From positions 140 to 64,139 of the forward strand of contig NZ_CANMYE010000014.1 of assembly GCF_947502065.1 (NCBI RefSeq): a stretch of DNA of 64,000 nt, written 5' to 3'. A model generated the notes under the pieces. The model had not been told where the DNA came from. It did not search any database and worked only from the letters and a program-made list of their open reading frames with translations. This DNA comes from an uncultured Pseudoteredinibacter sp. GTDB taxonomy: Bacteria > Pseudomonadota > Gammaproteobacteria > Pseudomonadales > Cellvibrionaceae. A program made the position numbers and the translations under genes. Below, in pieces: positions 9,846 to 38,428 of the stretch (positions are counted from its first letter, which is position 1; each line of letters begins with the position of its first letter).

Positions 9846-9886
9846 GCATAAAACGAGGCCGAAAACGGCAAAGCCTCCCACCCAAC

Positions 9887-10054
9887 GGGGTCAGACCCTC
9901 ACAGGGTCTGACCCCAAACCCATGCACAATCTAAACGCCAAAGCCGATCCGAACCATCCAACGGGGTCAGACCCTCATAGGGTCTGACCCCAAACTCATG
10001 CACAATCTAAACGCCAAAGCCGATCCGGGGTCAGAACCCAAGGGTTCTGCCCCC
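9887..10054 (-). repeat. Tandem array of three REP palindromes (9887-9915, 9963-9991, 10027-10054)
   Basis: The first two are GGGGTCAGACCC-TCA(C/T)A-GGGTCTGACCCC in a near-identical 76-bp unit. The third is GGGGTCAGAACCC-AA-GGGTTCTGCCCCC. Confidence 0.92.
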
Positions 10055-28745: not shown

Positions 28746-30656
28746 TTAGTAGATATCCTTCGCAAAAAGCGTGAATGGCGTCTTAGCCAATATCTTCATA
28801 TCCAGCCACAGCGACCAGTTATTGATATAGGCCATATCAAACTCCACACGCTTTTCCATTTTATCCAGCGTTTCTGTTTCACCGCGGCAGCCGCTTACTT
28901 GGGCTAGGCCTGTGATGCCAGGCTTAATTCTGTGGCGCGCTAAATAGCGGTTTATTTTTTTGCTATAAAAGTGATTGTGCGCTACTGCGTGTGGGCGCGG
29001 GCCCACTAGGCTCATGCGGCCCTGCAATACATTTATTAGTTGGGGCAGCTCATCGATGGAAGTGCGGCGAATAAATTTACCTATGGGGGTTACTCTATCG
29101 TCGTTTTTGGTCGCTTGTTTTACTTCGCCGCCTGCCTCATCGTGTTGGCGCATGCTGCGGAACTTCCACACTTCAATAATGCTGCCATCCCAGCCGTGGC
29201 GCTGCTGCTTAAAAATTACTGGGCCTTTCGAGCTTAGTTTTACCAGTGCCGCTATGGTTAGCATGATGGGCGATAGCGCAATTAGGGCCAGTAATGCGAT
29301 GCTTCTATCCATTAAGTCTTTTAGCACGGTAGATAAGCGCGAGCTGGTTAGCGGGCTTTCGTTTAGTGATATCAGTGGTACGCCGCCCACTTCACGTACT
29401 GAGTGGTTTACTAGGTTTAGGGCAGAGATATCTGGTGCCCAGATGATGTCTACATTGGCATCCATTAGCTCGATGTTTAGTTTGCTTACTTGTTGGGATA
29501 GCAACATAGGCAGGGCTATGTAGATGCGTTTTATGCCGCAGGCTTCTACGATTTTTATTAGCGAGCTGATGTGGTTTATTTCTGTGTAGGCGGCCAGCTC
29601 TTCTAGTTTTTGTTTTTGGGCTTGGTTTTTGTTGTGGTTTACTACTAGGGATAGGCGGTTTGTGAATGAGGCTGGGGCCGCATTTTGATTAGTGGCTTCG
29701 ATTTTGGGGTCAGATCCCTTGGGATCTGACCCCGTGTGTGGCGTTGCTTCGCTCGCCTTGAACTCTGTGAAGGCGGGTTTGTTTAGGTAGGTGCTGCTTA
29801 GCTTGCCGATGATGGGGACGTTGGCTAGTTTGCGGTTTAGCTTTACGTTGAATAGGCGCTTGCGCTTTTGGGCGAAGACATCGAGTGTTTTTTCTTCGCC
29901 TAATTCTTGTGCGGCTGCGTATTCGCTTTCGGCTACGCTGGTTTGTAGCCCTGGCTGTAAATCCGGCTCGCCCTCTACTTTAATTGTAGCCACTACATTA
30001 TCGCGCACCCATGGGTTGCGGTTTAGGCTGTTTACTAATTGCTGGGCGATTGCTCCGCTACCGATAACTAATGTGGGTATAGAGTGGGAATGGTGAGCGC
30101 GATACATACGCGTTAAATAATGGAAGGCAAAGTAAGCAGCTATTTGGCCTGCCCATGCTGTTGCAAACCACACTAATAAAACTTCGCGCGAATAGGTGAC
30201 GCTGGTTTTGGTAATAAAACCCAGCACTGCCAACAAAGCGACTGTAGTAGCCCATGCAATACTAATGCGCAGCACACTATTAAAGTGCCCTGTCGATCGG
30301 CGGTGTATGCCTTGGCTGCTATATACAAAGGCAATGGCAAAGGCACTGAGCACCGCAAGCACACGATAGTCAGAGCTGATAGCACCCATCTTTATATAGG
30401 CAAGCGTGCAAAGGCTGGCAACTACCCAAGCGATATCGCAGGCCAGTTGTAAAAATGCCACTAGGTTTTGATTGTTTTTTAGCAGGCGCCGGCCTTGAGG
30501 CACATCTACCCCTGCCTGGGGCAATATTGCCTGCTGAATAGCTTCAGAATTTACGGCGGCGCCAAATGCCGGCTCGTTTAACCCTGCCTGCTGTATGTTG
30601 TTGTTTGCTATATGCTCGCCTGCCATATTGGCGGCGTGATTTCCCTGTGACTCCAT
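28746..30656 (-). CDS. wcaJ: Undecaprenyl-phosphate glucose phosphotransferase with a large internal insertion
   Basis: N-terminal TMs, LVIGSG, KFRSM, RRTSIDELPQL, MSLVGPRP and KPGITGLAQV. At 636 aa it carries an extra low-complexity segment containing a REP. Confidence 0.92.
   Translation of the reverse strand: MESQGNHAANMAGEHIANNNIQQAGLNEPAFGAAVNSEAIQQAILPQAGVDVPQGRRLLKNNQNLVAFLQLACDIAWVVASLCTLAYIKMGAISSDYRVLAVLSAFAIAFVYSSQGIHRRSTGHFNSVLRISIAWATTVALLAVLGFITKTSVTYSREVLLVWFATAWAGQIAAYFAFHYLTRMYRAHHSHSIPTLVIGSGAIAQQLVNSLNRNPWVRDNVVATIKVEGEPDLQPGLQTSVAESEYAAAQELGEEKTLDVFAQKRKRLFNVKLNRKLANVPIIGKLSSTYLNKPAFTEFKASEATPHTGSDPKGSDPKIEATNQNAAPASFTNRLSLVVNHNKNQAQKQKLEELAAYTEINHISSLIKIVEACGIKRIYIALPMLLSQQVSKLNIELMDANVDIIWAPDISALNLVNHSVREVGGVPLISLNESPLTSSRLSTVLKDLMDRSIALLALIALSPIMLTIAALVKLSSKGPVIFKQQRHGWDGSIIEVWKFRSMRQHDEAGGEVKQATKNDDRVTPIGKFIRRTSIDELPQLINVLQGRMSLVGPRPHAVAHNHFYSKKINRYLARHRIKPGITGLAQVSGCRGETETLDKMEKRVEFDMAYINNWSLWLDMKILAKTPFTLFAKDIY
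29706..29733 (+). repeat. REP palindrome, T-type, inside the wcaJ coding sequence
   Basis: GGCTTCGATTTT-GGGGTCAGATCCC-TT-GGGATCTGACCCC; translates in frame as (T)GSDPKGSDP(K). Confidence 0.95.
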
Positions 30657-31848
30657 GATCCGCTCCGAGCGTTGTCACATTCCTATTAATCCGTTACATC
30701 CTGGATTTATGTCAGCCGTCTGTGCAGCCTCTTACATCTATTTACTTCTACGCTTATAACCTACTGATCTTGCAATTGGCCGTTTTTATAAATGCTGGCA
30801 TATATAAAAACAGACAAAAAAATGCATCAAACATGAGCGCTAATCACCTTTAAGGCACTCTTGTTTATTTCATTGGTTTGGGGGCTTTATGTTTATCGAA
30901 GGCTTACTCTTATTCTTTCGCTAGAGCTAATAGCTTCGATTGATTGGAATAGTTGGTTGGCTTAGCGCGGCTTAATACCACTGTTTACCGCAGCGTTATG
31001 TCAGTAAATCACCGTCCCGGTGAACTTCATACCGACCGCCGCTTGTAAAGCCAACCCAGCAGTTTCTGGCCTCCCTTTAGCTCACTCTTTTTGGCGCGCT
31101 AATCTACCCTTTTAACTGCGAGAACACCCTATTTCCCTTGGCCTTTTCCAAACTCCGTCTTAGAAATCTCCCTGGTTCTTTATGTTGAACCTAATAAATT
31201 TGATCCCAAATACTTAGCTGGCAGAATCTTATCTTGCCACTATGTAATTTTTTTTACGGATTTAACTTTATTACTTTTTAACTATAAATCCTTAAGAATT
31301 GGCGAGCAGTCTAAGTAATTAAGTTGATGCGAGCAACATTATTAATGTGAGCTGAATCACGATTTTGTGGTTTTTGGTGTTTTAAGCGACAAAATGTCGA
31401 TAACTGGCTGGACAACTCGGTTTTTATAAGATTAAGGAATTTGCAGGCATTTTTATAATAACCAAAGGGATTTAATAAGGTTTGTATTTTTAGGAGTTAT
31501 ATAAACTTTAGAGCCAGAGTATTTGTCGTTTTTTCAGGGTTAGCTCGAAATAAGACTTTAAAACTAAACATTCCTATCAGTTAGCTTATACGACAGGCAC
31601 TTAAGTTTTGTCGCGTTAGTCGTTTTTTTAGGAAATTTTATTTACCTAAGTTCATTAGCTTTGTTAGAATTTTAAGTGGTCTTAGATTGCAGCGCCATTT
31701 GCGATTGTTAATGCTTCCTTAGAAGATGTACGGCTGACAGTACTAGAGGTATCCAAAGCACTTAAGCAACCTAGGCAACACGGCGCAAAACAGCATTGAA
31801 GCTGCAATGGAAGAAAAAGCGATTGAACGCATTCAAGGAGAAACCTCA

Positions 31849-32592
31849 ATGCCTAGTTTATTCAGAAAGGGCGTATCGCCCCTGCTGTTATCATTGCTAT
31901 TGCCTTTAATGGCCAATGCCGATGTAGCATCCGATTTATCCAATAATGTTCCTATTGCCGATGTACTGGCAAATGCTATTGCTGACGGCATGACTGCCGA
32001 AGAAGCCGTAGCCGTTATTGCGGCCAATGATGCCTCACAAGTAGCTGCCGCTGTAGCAGCGGCTGTAGCGGCTAACCCGGCGGCGGCTGTAAGCATTACC
32101 CAAGCGGCTATCGCTGCAGTGCCAGCCCAGGCGGCGGTGATTGCCTCAGCTGCAGTTAGTGCGGCGCCTAATAATGCACAAGCTATTACCAATGCAGCAG
32201 TAACCGCAGCACCTACCGCAGCTGAAGCGATTGTTGGCGCAGCGGTAACAGCGGCCCCACAAGTGGCAAATAATATTGTACAGGGTGCAACTCAAGCGCA
32301 ACCTGGCAACAACACTAACTTTGTTCAGGCCGCGATTGCTGCCAACCCAACGGTTGCAGGCCAAGTAACCGGTGCGACGGCGGCTGGTGGCCAGCAAGGT
32401 AATGCTGGTGACTCAGGTAATACTGGGAATACCGGTGATACCGGCAACACTGGTAATACGGGCAATACCGGAAATACCGGTAACGCAGGAACTGGTAATG
32501 CTGGAGCAGGCGGTGCTGGTGGCGCCGGTGGTTCTGGTGGTGCCGGCGGCGGTGGTGGCGGCGGCGGCGGCGGTGGTGCCAGCCCTGCCTAA
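31849..32592 (+). CDS. Secreted Ala-rich 15-aa-repeat / Gly-X-Y repeat protein
   Basis: AAGGAG RBS before ATG 31849, Sec signal ending ANA, seven 15-aa repeats, eleven Gly-X-Y triplets, poly-Gly tail, own terminator. Confidence 0.8.
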   Translation: MPSLFRKGVSPLLLSLLLPLMANADVASDLSNNVPIADVLANAIADGMTAEEAVAVIAANDASQVAAAVAAAVAANPAAAVSITQAAIAAVPAQAAVIASAAVSAAPNNAQAITNAAVTAAPTAAEAIVGAAVTAAPQVANNIVQGATQAQPGNNTNFVQAAIAANPTVAGQVTGATAAGGQQGNAGDSGNTGNTGDTGNTGNTGNTGNTGNAGTGNAGAGGAGGAGGSGGAGGGGGGGGGGGASPA

Positions 32593-32706: not shown

Positions 32707-34080
32707 ATGAGCACCCTGCTATCGCAATCAGGTAATGCCATTGTTAATAGATATTATTATTGGTTCTTGGGCTTACTCGCCTGGATGCCCCTACCCTTAG
32801 CCAGCAAACGTATTTGGGCGAGCATGTTGCTGTGCATTTGGGTATATGTTCTTAGCGCCTTTGTTATTCGTTTTTATATTGTTCATGCCTTGCAAGTACC
32901 TAAGCCACTTAGGGTAGCCTGGCCCGCCTTTTTACTGCTGGGGCTAAGTTTTAGCTGGCAGTTGTATTTAAGTATACAAGCCAATATTGATACCTTTTCG
33001 GCCTATTTAAGCAGCATGCTTGCGCTGGCTTATATATTAATATTCTTGCTGTGTTTTTTGCTAATCAATAGTACAGAGCGAATTAAAGCTTGTGCCTGGG
33101 TGTTGGTGCTTAGTGCGCTGTTTCAAGCCTTGTATGGCAGCTTTATGAATTTAAGCGGTATTGAGTATTTATTTTTTGTTCCGAAGGATACTTACTTTGG
33201 GGTTAATACCGGTACTTTTGTGAATCGCAATAGCCAAGCGGGTTATTTAGTGATGTGCAGCTCGATAGGTATTGGTTTGATGATATCTACCTTGGCCAGT
33301 ACGCCGGCTAAAAGTATTCGAGAGCATGGCCGGCGTTGGATGCAGGCGATTTTAAGTCGCAAAATTATTTTGCGTTTAAGCCTGGTGATGATTGTTGCTG
33401 GCCTTGTTATGACCCATTCGCGCATGGGTAATACCTCCTTTTTTGCGAGCTTGATGATTATTAGCCCGCTGGCTTTGATTCTTGGGCGTTTTAATAAGCG
33501 GGTAAAGAATAAAGGCTCATGGAAAGGTTTGTTTGTTTTACTGGCCAGCTTGGTAATTATTGATATTGCTGTGGTGGGTACTTTTTTTGGGGTAGATAAA
33601 GTTGCTCAACGTTTAGAAGCTACTGCGAGTGAAAAGGAAACTCGTGATGATGTCGTTAAAAATGCAGCCCCTTTACTTGATAAGGTTTATGTGACGGGTT
33701 TGGGGGGCGGTAGTTTTTATACGGCCTTTCCGGAATATCGTACCTATGAGACAGGGCGCTCTTTTTATAATTTAGCGCATAATGATTATCTGCAGTTTAT
33801 GTTGGAATTTGGTTTGATTGGCTTTTTGCCTTTGCTGTTGCTTTGTATGGTGGTTTTTTATTTGGGCTTGGCGACGCAGATGCGGCGTGGGGATCGATTG
33901 CTGCGAGGAATTGGTTTTGGAGTGGCCATGGCGGTTTTAGCGATGGGGATTCATGCTACGGTGGATTTTAACTTGCAGATGCCGGCGAATGCTGGGACGT
34001 TTATGGTGGTATTGGCGCTTGGGTTGATTGTTTATTATTTTCCGAATCAAGGGAAGAGGAAGCGTCGGGGATTGAGTTAG
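32707..34080 (+). CDS. O-antigen ligase-family (Wzy_C) membrane protein; possible O-oligosaccharyltransferase
   Basis: GTFVNRN, THSRMG, GLGGGSFY, LAHNDYLQF and IHATVDFNLQMPAN motifs; multiple TMs. Confidence 0.88.
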   Translation: MSTLLSQSGNAIVNRYYYWFLGLLAWMPLPLASKRIWASMLLCIWVYVLSAFVIRFYIVHALQVPKPLRVAWPAFLLLGLSFSWQLYLSIQANIDTFSAYLSSMLALAYILIFLLCFLLINSTERIKACAWVLVLSALFQALYGSFMNLSGIEYLFFVPKDTYFGVNTGTFVNRNSQAGYLVMCSSIGIGLMISTLASTPAKSIREHGRRWMQAILSRKIILRLSLVMIVAGLVMTHSRMGNTSFFASLMIISPLALILGRFNKRVKNKGSWKGLFVLLASLVIIDIAVVGTFFGVDKVAQRLEATASEKETRDDVVKNAAPLLDKVYVTGLGGGSFYTAFPEYRTYETGRSFYNLAHNDYLQFMLEFGLIGFLPLLLLCMVVFYLGLATQMRRGDRLLRGIGFGVAMAVLAMGIHATVDFNLQMPANAGTFMVVLALGLIVYYFPNQGKRKRRGLS

Positions 34081-34133: not shown

Positions 34134-34242
34134 GGGGTCAGAACCTTTTGGGTTCTGACCCCGGGTTGGGTTTGGGCGCTATGGTTAGGGCATTTGGGAT
34201 CTCGGCTTCGAGGTGGGGTCAGAACCCTTGGGTTCTGACCCC
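34134..34242 (+). repeat. Two A-type REP palindromes (34134-34162, 34215-34242), 81 bp apart
   Basis: Both are preceded by TGGATC/GGGATC-TCGGCTTCGA; arms are GGGGTCAGAACC/GGTTCTGACCCC. Confidence 0.92.
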
Positions 34243-34250
34243 TTTTTGGT

Positions 34251-35891
34251 TTAGTTCTTTTTGCTGCGGCCGAAGGCGGTTACTGCGCAGCGGTGTGAAA
34301 GTAGATCTACGGTGCGGATGTTATAGTCGCCGCCGCTGGCTTCTAGGGTGGTTACCATTTGGTGGCTATTGGACTCTTGTTCTACTTTGTAAATTTGCTC
34401 TTGATTTAGTGGGTAGCGTACTGGATCGCCTTCGGCCATGCCTACTAGCAGATCAGCTTCGCAGCGCACTTTTGCACGGGTGATATCTGGCTCGCCCTGT
34501 AATGCGAAGCGCATGGTTAGTTCGCAAGCTTTTACTTCTTTATCGTCGGTGCGTTGGCAGGCTAGTAGTTCTTTTTCTAGGGTTAGCAGAACGGGTTGGC
34601 CTGTTGGGTTTGATTGTCTTTTTCTTGTTGTAGCGCTGCTTGGTTTTGCTTGTTCGGGCTCAGCAAGGGAAGCATTGCCAGCCAGGCGATCTTTAAAGCT
34701 TGGTGTTGTGGACGTTGGCGGCTCGGTTTTTGCGCTTTGTTTTTGCATTGGGTGGTTGCTGACGAGGTTATCTGGGTTTTCTTCTGGCCATGGGGTTTTG
34801 TTAGCGGGCTGGTTGGGCCTCGCTGCTGTTTTTGTGCTTGCTGTTATTTGGGTGCCGGTATTAGGGTCAGAACCGATTGGGTTCTGACCCTGGGTTTGGG
34901 CTTCTGCTTTTGTGTTTGCTGCGGTTTGGGTGCCGGTATTAGGGTCAGAACCGATTGGGTTCTGACCCTGGGTTTGGGCTGCTGCTTTTGTGCTTGCTGC
35001 GGTTTGGGTGCCGGCATTAGGGTCAGAACCGATTGGGTTCTGACCCTGGGTTTGGGCTGCTGCTTTTGTGGTTGCTGCGGTTTGGATGCCGGTTTTAGGG
35101 TTAGAACCGTTTAGGTTATGACCCTGGGTGTTTGTTGGCTTGGTGGCGGATTTGGGGTCGGAACCCTTGGGGTTCTGACCCCGGATTGGTTGAGGTTTTA
35201 CCTTTGTTTTTGCTAGGGCGTTTATTGTGGCCCAGTCTTTTTTTAGGAAGTGGGCAGCTACCCAACCGTGTAGGCGTTTGCCATCGTTGTTTGGATCTAT
35301 GGTGGTTATTCTGGCCCAGCCGTTATCTTTGTTATACACCATTACTGGGTGCTCAAATGGTATGGCGCTTAGGCGGATGTGTTTGGTGCTGGGGCCGCTG
35401 CGCACTTTTAGCGATTTAGTTTTCACTTGATGTGGTACGCCTTCACCTATGGGGTGAGGCTGTACTAACGCGGTGAATTCTGCAGCGTTGGTTTTTTTAT
35501 TTCTTTTTGGGCGGTTCGATACTGGGTCTACTTTAATATAGCGTGATGACATCCAGCCAGTGCGTTGTTGTTTGCCCTTGGGTAGGTTTTTATTGATAAA
35601 ACTGACTTCTGTCCACTCTCCTTGTACGCGTAAGCGAGTGACTACATGGCCTTTATTTAGCTGGCTAATGCCGGGGTAATCAGAGCCTGGGCCTTGGCGA
35701 ACTTTGACGAAGTTGGCGGTGATTACGCCGTATTCGGCCGCTTGGGATTTTGGGGTTGTTATTGGGGTGGTTAGTAGGGTGACTAGGGTTAGTGCCAGTA
35801 GGTAGAGTGGGGTCAGACCCCGTGGGGGTCTGACCCCGGTGGTGGTGTTGGTGAAGCTGTTTTTAAACTGGCCTATTTTTGCTGCTGGCAT
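34251..35891 (-). CDS. Secreted protein with two bacterial SH3 domains, a REP-derived repeat linker and an unknown C-terminal domain
   Basis: Signal-like N-terminus; VKVRQGPG..W and LKVRSGPS..NGWA SH3b motifs; (T/A)QGQNPIGSDP repeats; Cys-containing C-terminal domain. Confidence 0.8.
   Translation of the reverse strand: MPAAKIGQFKNSFTNTTTGVRPPRGLTPLYLLALTLVTLLTTPITTPKSQAAEYGVITANFVKVRQGPGSDYPGISQLNKGHVVTRLRVQGEWTEVSFINKNLPKGKQQRTGWMSSRYIKVDPVSNRPKRNKKTNAAEFTALVQPHPIGEGVPHQVKTKSLKVRSGPSTKHIRLSAIPFEHPVMVYNKDNGWARITTIDPNNDGKRLHGWVAAHFLKKDWATINALAKTKVKPQPIRGQNPKGSDPKSATKPTNTQGHNLNGSNPKTGIQTAATTKAAAQTQGQNPIGSDPNAGTQTAASTKAAAQTQGQNPIGSDPNTGTQTAANTKAEAQTQGQNPIGSDPNTGTQITASTKTAARPNQPANKTPWPEENPDNLVSNHPMQKQSAKTEPPTSTTPSFKDRLAGNASLAEPEQAKPSSATTRKRQSNPTGQPVLLTLEKELLACQRTDDKEVKACELTMRFALQGEPDITRAKVRCEADLLVGMAEGDPVRYPLNQEQIYKVEQESNSHQMVTTLEASGGDYNIRTVDLLSHRCAVTAFGRSKKN
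34863..35182 (+). repeat. Five REP-derived palindromes inside the SH3 gene (34863-34891, 34941-34969, 35019-35047, degenerate 35097-35125, 35154-35182)
   Basis: AGGGTCAGAACC-GATTG-GGTTCTGACCCT at exact 78-bp spacing, then 57 bp to the last copy. Confidence 0.93.
35809..35837. repeat. REP palindrome within the SH3 protein N-terminal signal region
   Basis: GGGGTCAGACCCC-GTG-GGGGTCTGACCCC; reads GVRPPRGLTP on the minus strand. Confidence 0.88.
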
Positions 35892-37712: not shown

Positions 37713-37740
37713 GGGGTCAGATCCCTTGGGATCTGACCCC
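37713..37740 (+). repeat. REP palindrome, T-type, 5 bp from the RAYT stop codon
   Basis: CGGCTTCGACGT-GGGGTCAGATCCC-TT-GGGATCTGACCCC. Confidence 0.93.
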
Positions 37741-37745
37741 GAGTG

Positions 37746-38327
37746 TTAGGTGGTTCGGATTGATTGGATTTGTTTGGGGTTTAACGCTTCTTGGAAGAGG
37801 TTTTGGTAGTTGGTTTGTTTTTGTTCTTTGGTATTTCCTAAAGAATCATATATGGAATGAGCTGTTGTAAGATTGTCACTTTTGCCAAATGCATTGCAGT
37901 TGTAGCTGGACCATTTGTATTGGCTAGGGTGGTTAACTAAGCCAGCTCGGACGGGGTTTAGCTCTACGTAACGATAAGCACACAACAGGTAACTATCGTG
38001 AGTAATTTGCTTTGAGCGGTAGCGGCCTTGCCAAAGTGTGCCACTGCGCTGGTATTTTTTGTTGTAGTAGTTGCTGTAGGCAATGCTTAGGGTTTGCATC
38101 ATTTTTGAGGGGGCGTTTGATTGCTCTGCTGTACAGAGTAGATGGATGTGATTACTCATGAACACCCAAACGTGGATGCTTACTTTGTAATGGCTGGACT
38201 TTGTTCTTAGTAGGCTTAGGTATTTTACGTGGTCTTGCTCGTCGTGGAAAACTTGTTGCCGATTGCAGCCGCGCTGGACGATATGGAGGGGAATGCCTGG
38301 GGTGGTTTGGCGGGGCTGTCTTGGCAT
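37746..38327 (-). mobile_element. REP-associated tyrosine transposase (RAYT, HUH/Y1 TnpA family)
   Basis: MPRQPR..PGIPLHIVQRG start, HUH motif SNHIHLL, LWQGRY, catalytic Tyr in RYVELNPVRAG, YKWSSY; flanked on both sides by palindromes. Confidence 0.92.
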
Positions 38328-38380: not shown

Positions 38381-38420
38381 GGGGTCAGATCCCTAGGGAT
38401 CTGACCCCGTTCTGACCCCG
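38381..38420 (+). repeat. REP palindrome, T-type, plus a duplicated right half-arm
   Basis: CTCGGCTTCGATAT-GGGGTCAGATCCC-TA-GGGATCTGACCCC, then GTTCTGACCCCG. Confidence 0.92.
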
Positions 38421-38428
38421 TTTTGGTT

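Follow-up and report, generated by a model that had tools for sequence, protein, structure and literature searches.

We analyzed a 64,000-nucleotide stretch of DNA from an uncultured Pseudoteredinibacter sp. (Cellvibrionaceae; contig NZ_CANMYE010000014.1 of RefSeq assembly GCF_947502065.1, positions 140 to 64,139 of the forward strand; here referred to as the window). An open reading frame (ORF) in this window, encoding a secreted SH3 protein of 546 amino acids (aa) on the minus strand (positions 34251 to 35891), contains five palindromes of 27 to 29 bp that belong to the resident family of repetitive extragenic palindromic (REP) elements, and all five are in frame. The account that we consider likely is that REPs came to lie in frame in a disordered linker, that one of them was then duplicated in tandem as a block together with neighboring linker DNA, that whole units were subsequently gained and lost, and that the encoded peptide serves as neutral filler.

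The palindromes were located with the pattern GGGTCAGAACC-N5-GGTTCTGACCC (i.e., GGGTCAGAMCC-N5-GGKTCTGACCC), which matched 10 times in the whole window and 0 times in 100 dinucleotide-preserving shuffles. Three perfect matches in the SH3 gene (34864 to 34890, 34942 to 34968, and 35020 to 35046) are accompanied by two imperfect ones, at 35098 to 35124 (2 mismatches) and 35155 to 35181 (1 mismatch), so that the coding spacings are 78, 78, 78, and 57 bp. Perfect coding copies measure 12 + 5 + 12 = 29 bp when the outer A/T pair is included. Tandem Repeats Finder (TRF) independently reported a repeat at 34822 to 35129 with a period of 78, 3.9 copies, 92% matches, and a score of 518. This 26-codon array is made of a 27-nt palindrome and 51 nt of linker DNA per unit, with the junction ...cccaaacccag/ggtcag (the slash marks the boundary). 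A first-pass annotation of the window had described five palindromes in this ORF, four of them repeating every 78 bp exactly, and both the pattern search and TRF bear this out. The peptides that it listed, GQNPKGSDPK, GHNLNGSNPK, and three copies of GQNPIGSDPN, are likewise those obtained by translating the ORF, where they lie within ..TGTQTAASTKAAAQTQ.. units. The 26-aa repeat unit of the protein is GQNPIGSDPNTGTQTAASTKAAAQTQ, the whole array occupies residues 238 to 343 (~106 aa), and AAAQTQGQNPIGSDPNAGTQTAASTK is an example of a tryptic peptide predicted from the repeat.

The five copies differ in their state of preservation. REP1 (35155 to 35181, minus strand), read as GQNPKGSDP, retains 11 of 12 stem pairs, the single mismatch arising from a synonymous TCT>TCC change. 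REP2 (35098 to 35124, minus strand) is read as GHNLNGSNP and keeps 10 of 12 stem pairs in the window; it is intact (GQNLNGSDP) in two of the related loci described below, L001 and L004. The remaining three are young copies (34864 to 35046, minus strand), each read as GQNPIGSDP and each with perfect 12-bp stems. In the right arm (TC-TGA-CC), a stop codon occurs in just one frame, which leaves two of the three frames on either strand open for every REP copy. The earlier remark that a length of 29 bp permits stop-free reading is therefore trivial; there is nothing special about that length.

As the first-pass annotation had proposed, these palindromes are part of a genuine REP/RAYT system. A gene for a REP-associated tyrosine transposase (RAYT) of 193 aa lies at 37746 to 38327 on the minus strand, 2 kb from the palindromes of the SH3 gene, and is identified by Pfam Y1_Tnp (E = 2.3e-16, 60.5 bits against a cutoff of 23); its best NCBIfam match is REP_Tyr_transpos, at 76 bits (just below the 80-bit cutoff), compared with 32 bits for IS200. 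The same palindromes flank this gene on each side (37715 to 37738 and 38383 to 38406, strand not assigned), and the Y1_Tnp gene is syntenic in L004. A looser census yielded ~20 copies of the family in the 64 kb, 13 intergenic and 7 within two coding sequences (CDSs), with stems of three subtypes (…GTCAGATCCC…, …GTCAGAACC(C)…, and …GTCAGACCC…). Across the window and four related loci, the REP is asymmetric: a GGCTTCGA box stands 2 to 3 nt from one stem end in 39 of 65 copies and on both stem ends in none of the 65. The bases adjoining the stem are T...G, followed by a variable dinucleotide and then the box, on one side only. No consensus GTAG or CGTC tetranucleotide tag beside the stem was seen by eye in the same copies, which suggests that this family is a differently tagged REP class. 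Neighboring copies between 29.7 and 38.9 kb, including both RAYT-flanking REPs, carry the GGCTTCGA flank in the same direction rather than inverted as the paired REPs of a REPIN would be, although this is a small sample. Near the RAYT gene, the right arm of a REP is itself duplicated in tandem at 38397 to 38422 (TCTGACCCCGT x2.1), which may be a footprint of slippage or cleavage. A search for decayed REP relics in other genes returned only the known copies and this half-site duplication, placed at 38397 to 38418, beside the RAYT-proximal REP.

We next considered the protein in which the array resides. The SH3 protein (Pfam SH3_3, E = 3e-21) has a signal peptide, two bacterial SH3 domains, a disordered linker of ~200 aa, and a C-terminal β-sandwich. 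In an AlphaFold (AF2) model built on an alignment with distant orthologues, the SH3 domains (residues 52 to 121 and 152 to 218) have a predicted local distance difference test score (pLDDT) of ~85 and the C-terminal β-sandwich (434 to 542) one of ~87. Between them, residues 231 to 429 (34605 to 35201, minus strand) are modeled without secondary structure at a pLDDT of ~31, and the REP array falls entirely inside this predicted disordered linker. Foldseek comparison of the N-terminal half with the PDB retrieved tandem bacterial SH3 modules of cell wall hydrolases; for the C-terminal domain, there was no NCBIfam match, and Foldseek against the PDB gave just generic Ig-like β-sandwiches.

Six distant orthologues recovered by an exhaustive HMMER search (P0005 to P0010; 30 to 48% identity) have the same construction in one chain, with a signal peptide, one or two SH3 domains, a linker, and a Cys-containing C-terminal domain. 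Their linkers contain SPEP repeats, are K/E/Q-rich or P/A-rich, or are very short, and are unrelated in sequence and length. None of them contains GQNP, GSDP, or anything alignable to the repeat unit, so the finding that the first-pass annotation had said would count against it, orthologues from REP-free genomes sharing the repeat, was not encountered. The REP-encoded segment is therefore a lineage-specific acquisition in a freely variable linker. Linkers of this protein family generally seem prone to repeat expansion; P0005 has a tandem repeat of its own (NSPEPx, 6-aa period) at residues ~130 to 185, between its two SH3 domains.

To set the array in the window beside its closest counterparts, we compared it with four orthologous loci: L001, from an uncultured Pseudoteredinibacter sp.; L002, from a Cellvibrionaceae metagenome-assembled genome; L003; and L004, from a European Nucleotide Archive (ENA) assembly. 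REP1 and REP2, 57 bp apart, are common to all five genomes, as is a further REP near the N terminus. The linker contains five palindromes in the window, three in L001, and two each in L002 to L004, so that three of the five genomes are in the minimal two-copy state. Metagenome contigs add to this series. Contigs X1 (a seawater run) and X3 (a plastisphere run) lack exactly 234 bp (3 × 78) and are joined within the palindromes; in X8, an oyster metagenome contig, three units run directly into the REP1 spacer, which amounts to four palindromes; and X2, a fish gut contig, has an 81-bp unit. Subject to an assembly caveat taken up below, these sequences show close relatives carrying alleles of 2, 3, 4, and 5 palindromes, in agreement with the earlier expectation that linker length and REP content would differ among relatives. 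A metagenome scan with the coding-type palindrome pattern gave 0 matches, and a protein-level metagenome scan gave a single 27%-identical SH3 match that was of no use for further alleles. The orthologue in L004 (6001 to 7230) diverges after ..LQGEP and ends early, at 409 aa, through a frameshift in the C-terminal domain that reflects either a pseudogene or an assembly error.

The architecture of the repeat unit shows how the array is likely to have grown. When the linker is split at its palindromes, the window reads 57, 78, 78, 78, and a tail, and L001 reads 57, 81, and a tail, each repeat unit consisting of the 27-nt palindrome and 51 to 54 nt of ordinary linker DNA. Internal units end in …gcccaaacccag/ggtcag, which parallels the unique sequence past the last unit (…gcccaaccag/cccgct), while the sequence ahead of REP2 ends in …acacccag/ggtcag. 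Because the unit combines a REP with non-REP linker DNA, copied as a block and bounded by CC(C)AG microhomology, these junctions indicate that amplification occurred by ordinary tandem duplication followed by unequal recombination and not by repeated transposition. RAYT would be required at most for the founding insertion or insertions, since host DNA would not be copied with such regularity if each palindrome had arrived by a transposition event of its own. An intergenic counterpart exists at 9878 to 10027 (strand not assigned), where TRF detected a 76-bp tandem duplication of REP plus spacer with 95% identity, a block duplication process like that of the coding array, but outside genes; a third REP, of a different subtype, comes next at 10029. 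As a possible source of the 78-bp unit, an imported module from an intergenic REP array was ruled out because the coding spacer is unlike intergenic REP spacers.

The history that we favor runs as follows. The common ancestor of the five relatives already had two REPs, 57 bp apart and in frame, in the disordered linker of a secreted SH3b protein, where a RAYT may have placed them. Such copies would be tolerated there because a REP is open in two of three frames and encodes a turn-forming peptide rich in Gly, Pro, Ser, Asp, Asn, and Gln. A block comprising REP2 and the following 51 to 54 nt of linker DNA would then have been duplicated in tandem, the first duplication probably occurring between short CC(C)AG direct repeats 78 to 81 bp apart, to judge from the junctions. 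Whole 26-codon units would subsequently have been added and removed as near-identical units recombined unequally or slipped during replication, at a rate that the hairpin-forming palindromes may increase. Only changes in multiples of three nucleotides would survive because the C-terminal domain must remain in frame, and the encoded peptide itself would be neutral or nearly neutral linker filler.

The effect of such a frame filter can be examined in the indels that separate the five genomes, which we scored in the coding linker and in the REP-bearing intergenic DNA immediately on either side of the SH3 gene. All six linker events (12, 9, 234, 153, 6, and 6 nt) are multiples of three, compared with 4 of 15 in the flanking intergenic DNA (hypergeometric p = 0.004). 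The first-pass annotation had held that selection keeps the repeat in frame; this contrast supports the claim in part, but such selection is needed only at the founding events. Because gain or loss of a 78-bp unit is automatically in frame, selection would be visible mainly in small indels and in those events. The related contrast that it drew between coding periods, both multiples of three, and intergenic ones fared less well. The intergenic spacings that it gave, 76 (9889/9965), 81 (34136/34217), and 131 (38747/38878), are correct, but further spacings of 64, 123, and 126 occur, and the contrast within the window is weak because three of the six (81, 123, and 126) are multiples of three. The pair spaced by 81 lies directly downstream of the SH3 gene (34135 to 34242, strand not assigned); its spacing is 79 in L001 and 131 in L002.

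Folding of the array as RNA gives five strong stem-loops, with a minimum free energy (MFE) of −124.9 kcal/mol compared with −71.6 ± 4.6 for shuffles (z = −11.6). One alternative to neutral filler, which we regard as possible but rather unlikely, is that the array has a function on which positive or diversifying selection acts, either because linker length (2 to 5 units) tunes the reach of the C-terminal domain of a cell envelope protein in the manner of a contingency-type variable-number tandem repeat (VNTR) or because the five mRNA hairpins regulate translation or mRNA decay. The stability of the hairpins speaks for it, as does the variation in copy number among close relatives whose SH3 domains are invariant in a four-sequence alignment (A1), and the gene lies within a surface polysaccharide cluster. 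However, stem pairs have begun to disappear from the older copies, and substitutions in the peptide occur freely: both changes in REP2 are nonsynonymous (Q>H and D>N), and the second copy in L002 has D>G. In the decayed stems of REP1 and REP2, no compensatory changes were found; the changes break pairs. Linkers of the outgroup orthologues, which range from very short to long, suggest little constraint on linker content, and three of the five genomes persist with two copies. Loss of stem pairing in the older copies makes selection on the hairpins themselves improbable; the decay is more readily explained by neutral linker filler than by selection for either the hairpin or the peptide.

Far less probable is the implication of the first-pass annotation that the RAYT inserted each palindrome separately, making the array a direct product of repeated REP transposition. 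The RAYT gene is close by, and the family does form intergenic arrays, with spacings of 64 to 131 bp. However, the 51 nt between palindromes have been copied along with them, units 3 and 4 being identical at 75 of 78 positions and the older unit 2 matching each of them at 70 of 78, and a regular 78-bp repeat of host sequence is not what separate insertions would produce. The spacer is, moreover, homologous to unique linker DNA downstream of the last unit and not to intergenic REP spacers; a blastn-short comparison of the coding spacer with the rest of the window found no significant similarity to the latter, only chance-level 8- to 13-mers. The broader proposal that a REP/RAYT system is generating new protein sequence thus holds for the REP origin of the sequence and its retention in frame, but not for amplification by RAYT, given that REP and 51 nt were copied as a block.

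That the long ORF is an artefact, the array really being intergenic or the gene a pseudogene with a frame open by chance, deserves almost no credence. In its favor, REPs usually lie outside genes, those annotated as "intragenic" at N termini frequently reflect misannotation (Di Nocera 2013, PMC3733652), and the L004 copy is frameshifted. Against it, the SH3 and C-terminal domains occur in one chain in distant orthologues, both sides fold confidently in the AF2 model, every linker indel is a multiple of three, all five genomes keep the frame open from one end of the array to the other, and a separate C-terminal gene would have no start codon or ribosome-binding site context in the translation. 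The fused architecture and the folded domains on both sides also uphold the first-pass placement of the palindromes within a single real CDS, as part of which they are predicted to be translated. Contigs from two coral metatranscriptomes (X12 and X7), belonging to a relative that is ~92% identical, cover the gene on both sides of the array as well as repeat units, which lends some support to transcription across it.

Several points weigh against the history of in-frame REPs, block duplication, and neutral filler set out above. For the relatives, palindromes were counted in short-read assemblies and Logan contigs, in which tandem repeats can be collapsed; countering such an artefact, the two-copy alleles differ in sequence, and the units of L001 share no collapse-prone 31-mer. 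The copies in the SH3 linker lack the GGCTTCGA flank at ≤1 mismatch, so it is the palindrome that suggests their origin by transposition, and REP1 and REP2 could be an older duplication of one single insertion. The metatranscriptome contigs derive from the ~92%-identical relative rather than from this genome, and their libraries may contain DNA; translation across the repeat is a prediction from sequence and RNA contigs. Finally, we infer neutrality from patterns of decay, and linker length or the mRNA hairpins, given their z of −11.6, may still have a functional role.

Two further REPs lie in frame within genes of the window. The first is a sixth copy in the SH3 gene itself (35810 to 35836, minus strand); it is shared by the five relatives and yields GVRPPRGLTP, in a frame different from that of the array. 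As read from the sequence, there is no other in-frame start between this REP and the hydrophobic core of the signal peptide, and the REP supplies the arginines of the positively charged signal peptide N-region. The start of the protein, MPAAK, resembles the MPIAK of P0008 and P0009. The second, an independent REP with the GGCTTCGA flank (29708 to 29731, minus strand), is read as GSDPKGSDPK inside a sugar transferase CDS (28746 to 30656, minus strand). This CDS encodes an undecaprenyl-phosphate glucose phosphotransferase of 636 aa, compared with ~480 aa in typical orthologues, and the REP lies inside a lineage-specific insert of ~150 aa that splits the CoA_binding_3 region. Its peptide is present in relatives with 100% and 77% identity and absent at 62%, 58%, and beyond, including the ~480-aa orthologues. 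Together, the three intragenic sites use all three open readings of the palindrome (GQ..SD, VR..LT, and SD..SD). The insertions appear to sit at permissive sites, namely a disordered linker, a signal peptide N-region, and a lineage-specific enzyme loop. The genome scan found just two relatives and the window provides three independent intragenic sites, too few for frame-bias statistics.

REPs inside genes are not new. Di Nocera, De Gregorio, and Rocco (2013, BMC Genomics 14:522; PMC3733652) catalogued them in many species, with more than half occurring as dimers or groups encoding 20 to 30 aa and with clusters in Thauera and R. conorii encoding 43 to 82 aa; the idea that such elements are neutral because they lie in flexible linkers is already found there, as is a remark on REP arrays around an exopolysaccharide (EPS) cluster. 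The present locus belongs to the class catalogued in 2013, sharing short REP palindromes of RAYT-bearing genomes that lie in frame, often as dimers or clusters, within genes whose function is known. It differs in that its cluster (106 aa, residues 238 to 343) is larger than those reported and has an exact 26-codon period, in that the event can be polarized from a series of alleles (2 to 5 copies) in different strains together with outgroup orthologues, and in that its REP family shows a GGCTTCGA box 2 to 3 nt from the stem in place of a GTAG or CGTC tag. What the locus adds to that class is the period, the allele series, the outgroup polarity, and junctions that reveal the mechanism. A literature search on REPs in Pseudoteredinibacter found nothing relevant.

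Three other kinds of element invite comparison. Rickettsia palindromic elements (RPEs; Ogata et al. 2000, Science 290:347), as presented in the two papers that cite them here (PMC3733652 and PMC3184786), are the classic in-frame palindromic insertions and are likewise selfish palindromic repeats that lie in frame at structurally permissive sites and create new peptide segments. As described in those papers, however, RPEs are 105 to 146 bp long, are inserted singly, have no known cognate RAYT, and are not amplified as a tandem coding array. PARCELs (2010; PMC2996958) are variable-number intragenic tandem repeats of ~25 residues with DNA dyad symmetry in proteins targeted to the surface or membrane. 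Their units are amphipathic, with conserved hydrophobic positions, and spread by horizontal gene transfer as a protein motif, whereas the unit described here is hydrophilic and disordered, is confined to one lineage, and contains a palindrome that copies the genome's own intergenic REP family. PARCEL membership of GQNPIGSDPNTGTQTAASTKAAAQTQ is unlikely, since it has no hydrophobic periodicity by eye and is predicted to be disordered. Coding minisatellites or VNTRs in the linkers of bacterial surface proteins are similar in having a unit that is a multiple of three (78 and 81 nt here), a polymorphic copy number, and gain and loss of units by slippage or unequal recombination within a low-complexity linker; in contrast to ordinary coding VNTRs, the core of this unit is a recognizable mobile element palindrome, which makes the origin of the repeat traceable.

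The locus and its relatives make visible the donor family, the transposase, REP-free outgroup linkers, the two-copy state, and the expanded states of three to five copies, and they separate two steps that are easily conflated: insertion, which is plausibly RAYT dependent, and amplification, an ordinary tandem duplication that carries the REP along. Three permissive contexts, an inter-domain linker, a signal peptide N-region, and an enzyme surface loop, are found within one 64-kb window. None of this alters the account given in Di Nocera et al. (2013) and in the work on Rickettsia RPEs; the locus offers a test case for rates, frame filtering, and linker-length effects, and an unusually readable example of selfish intergenic DNA turning into protein sequence. 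More speculatively, and with little confidence, we suggest that REPs might seed fast-evolving in-frame coding minisatellites, their hairpins promoting slippage and their open frames encoding disorder-promoting G/P/S/D/N/Q peptide. A REP-rich genome would then recurrently lengthen the linkers, signal peptide N-regions, and loops of envelope proteins, and the length of the SH3b linker (2 to 5 units) would be a selectable, strain-variable trait.

The surface polysaccharide cluster that houses the locus contains Pfam matches to Wzy_C, ManC, Bac_transf, WecG, CpsB, and a UDP-glucose/GDP-mannose-type dehydrogenase. The Wzy_C (O-antigen ligase family) gene, at 32707 to 34080 on the plus strand, encodes a membrane protein and is convergent with the SH3 gene. 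Protein O-oligosaccharyltransferases are among the members of the Wzy_C family; the protein encoded at 32707 to 34080 gave no match to a PglL-specific domain, and glycosylation of the linker, to which this neighboring gene is the sole lead, is pure speculation. At 31807 to 32592 on the plus strand is a 261-aa ORF with no Pfam match, a signal peptide-like start, and a long Ala/Val-rich region, whose C-terminal GNT/GAG/poly-Gly tail is encoded by 9- and 18-bp tandem repeats (32416 to 32580).

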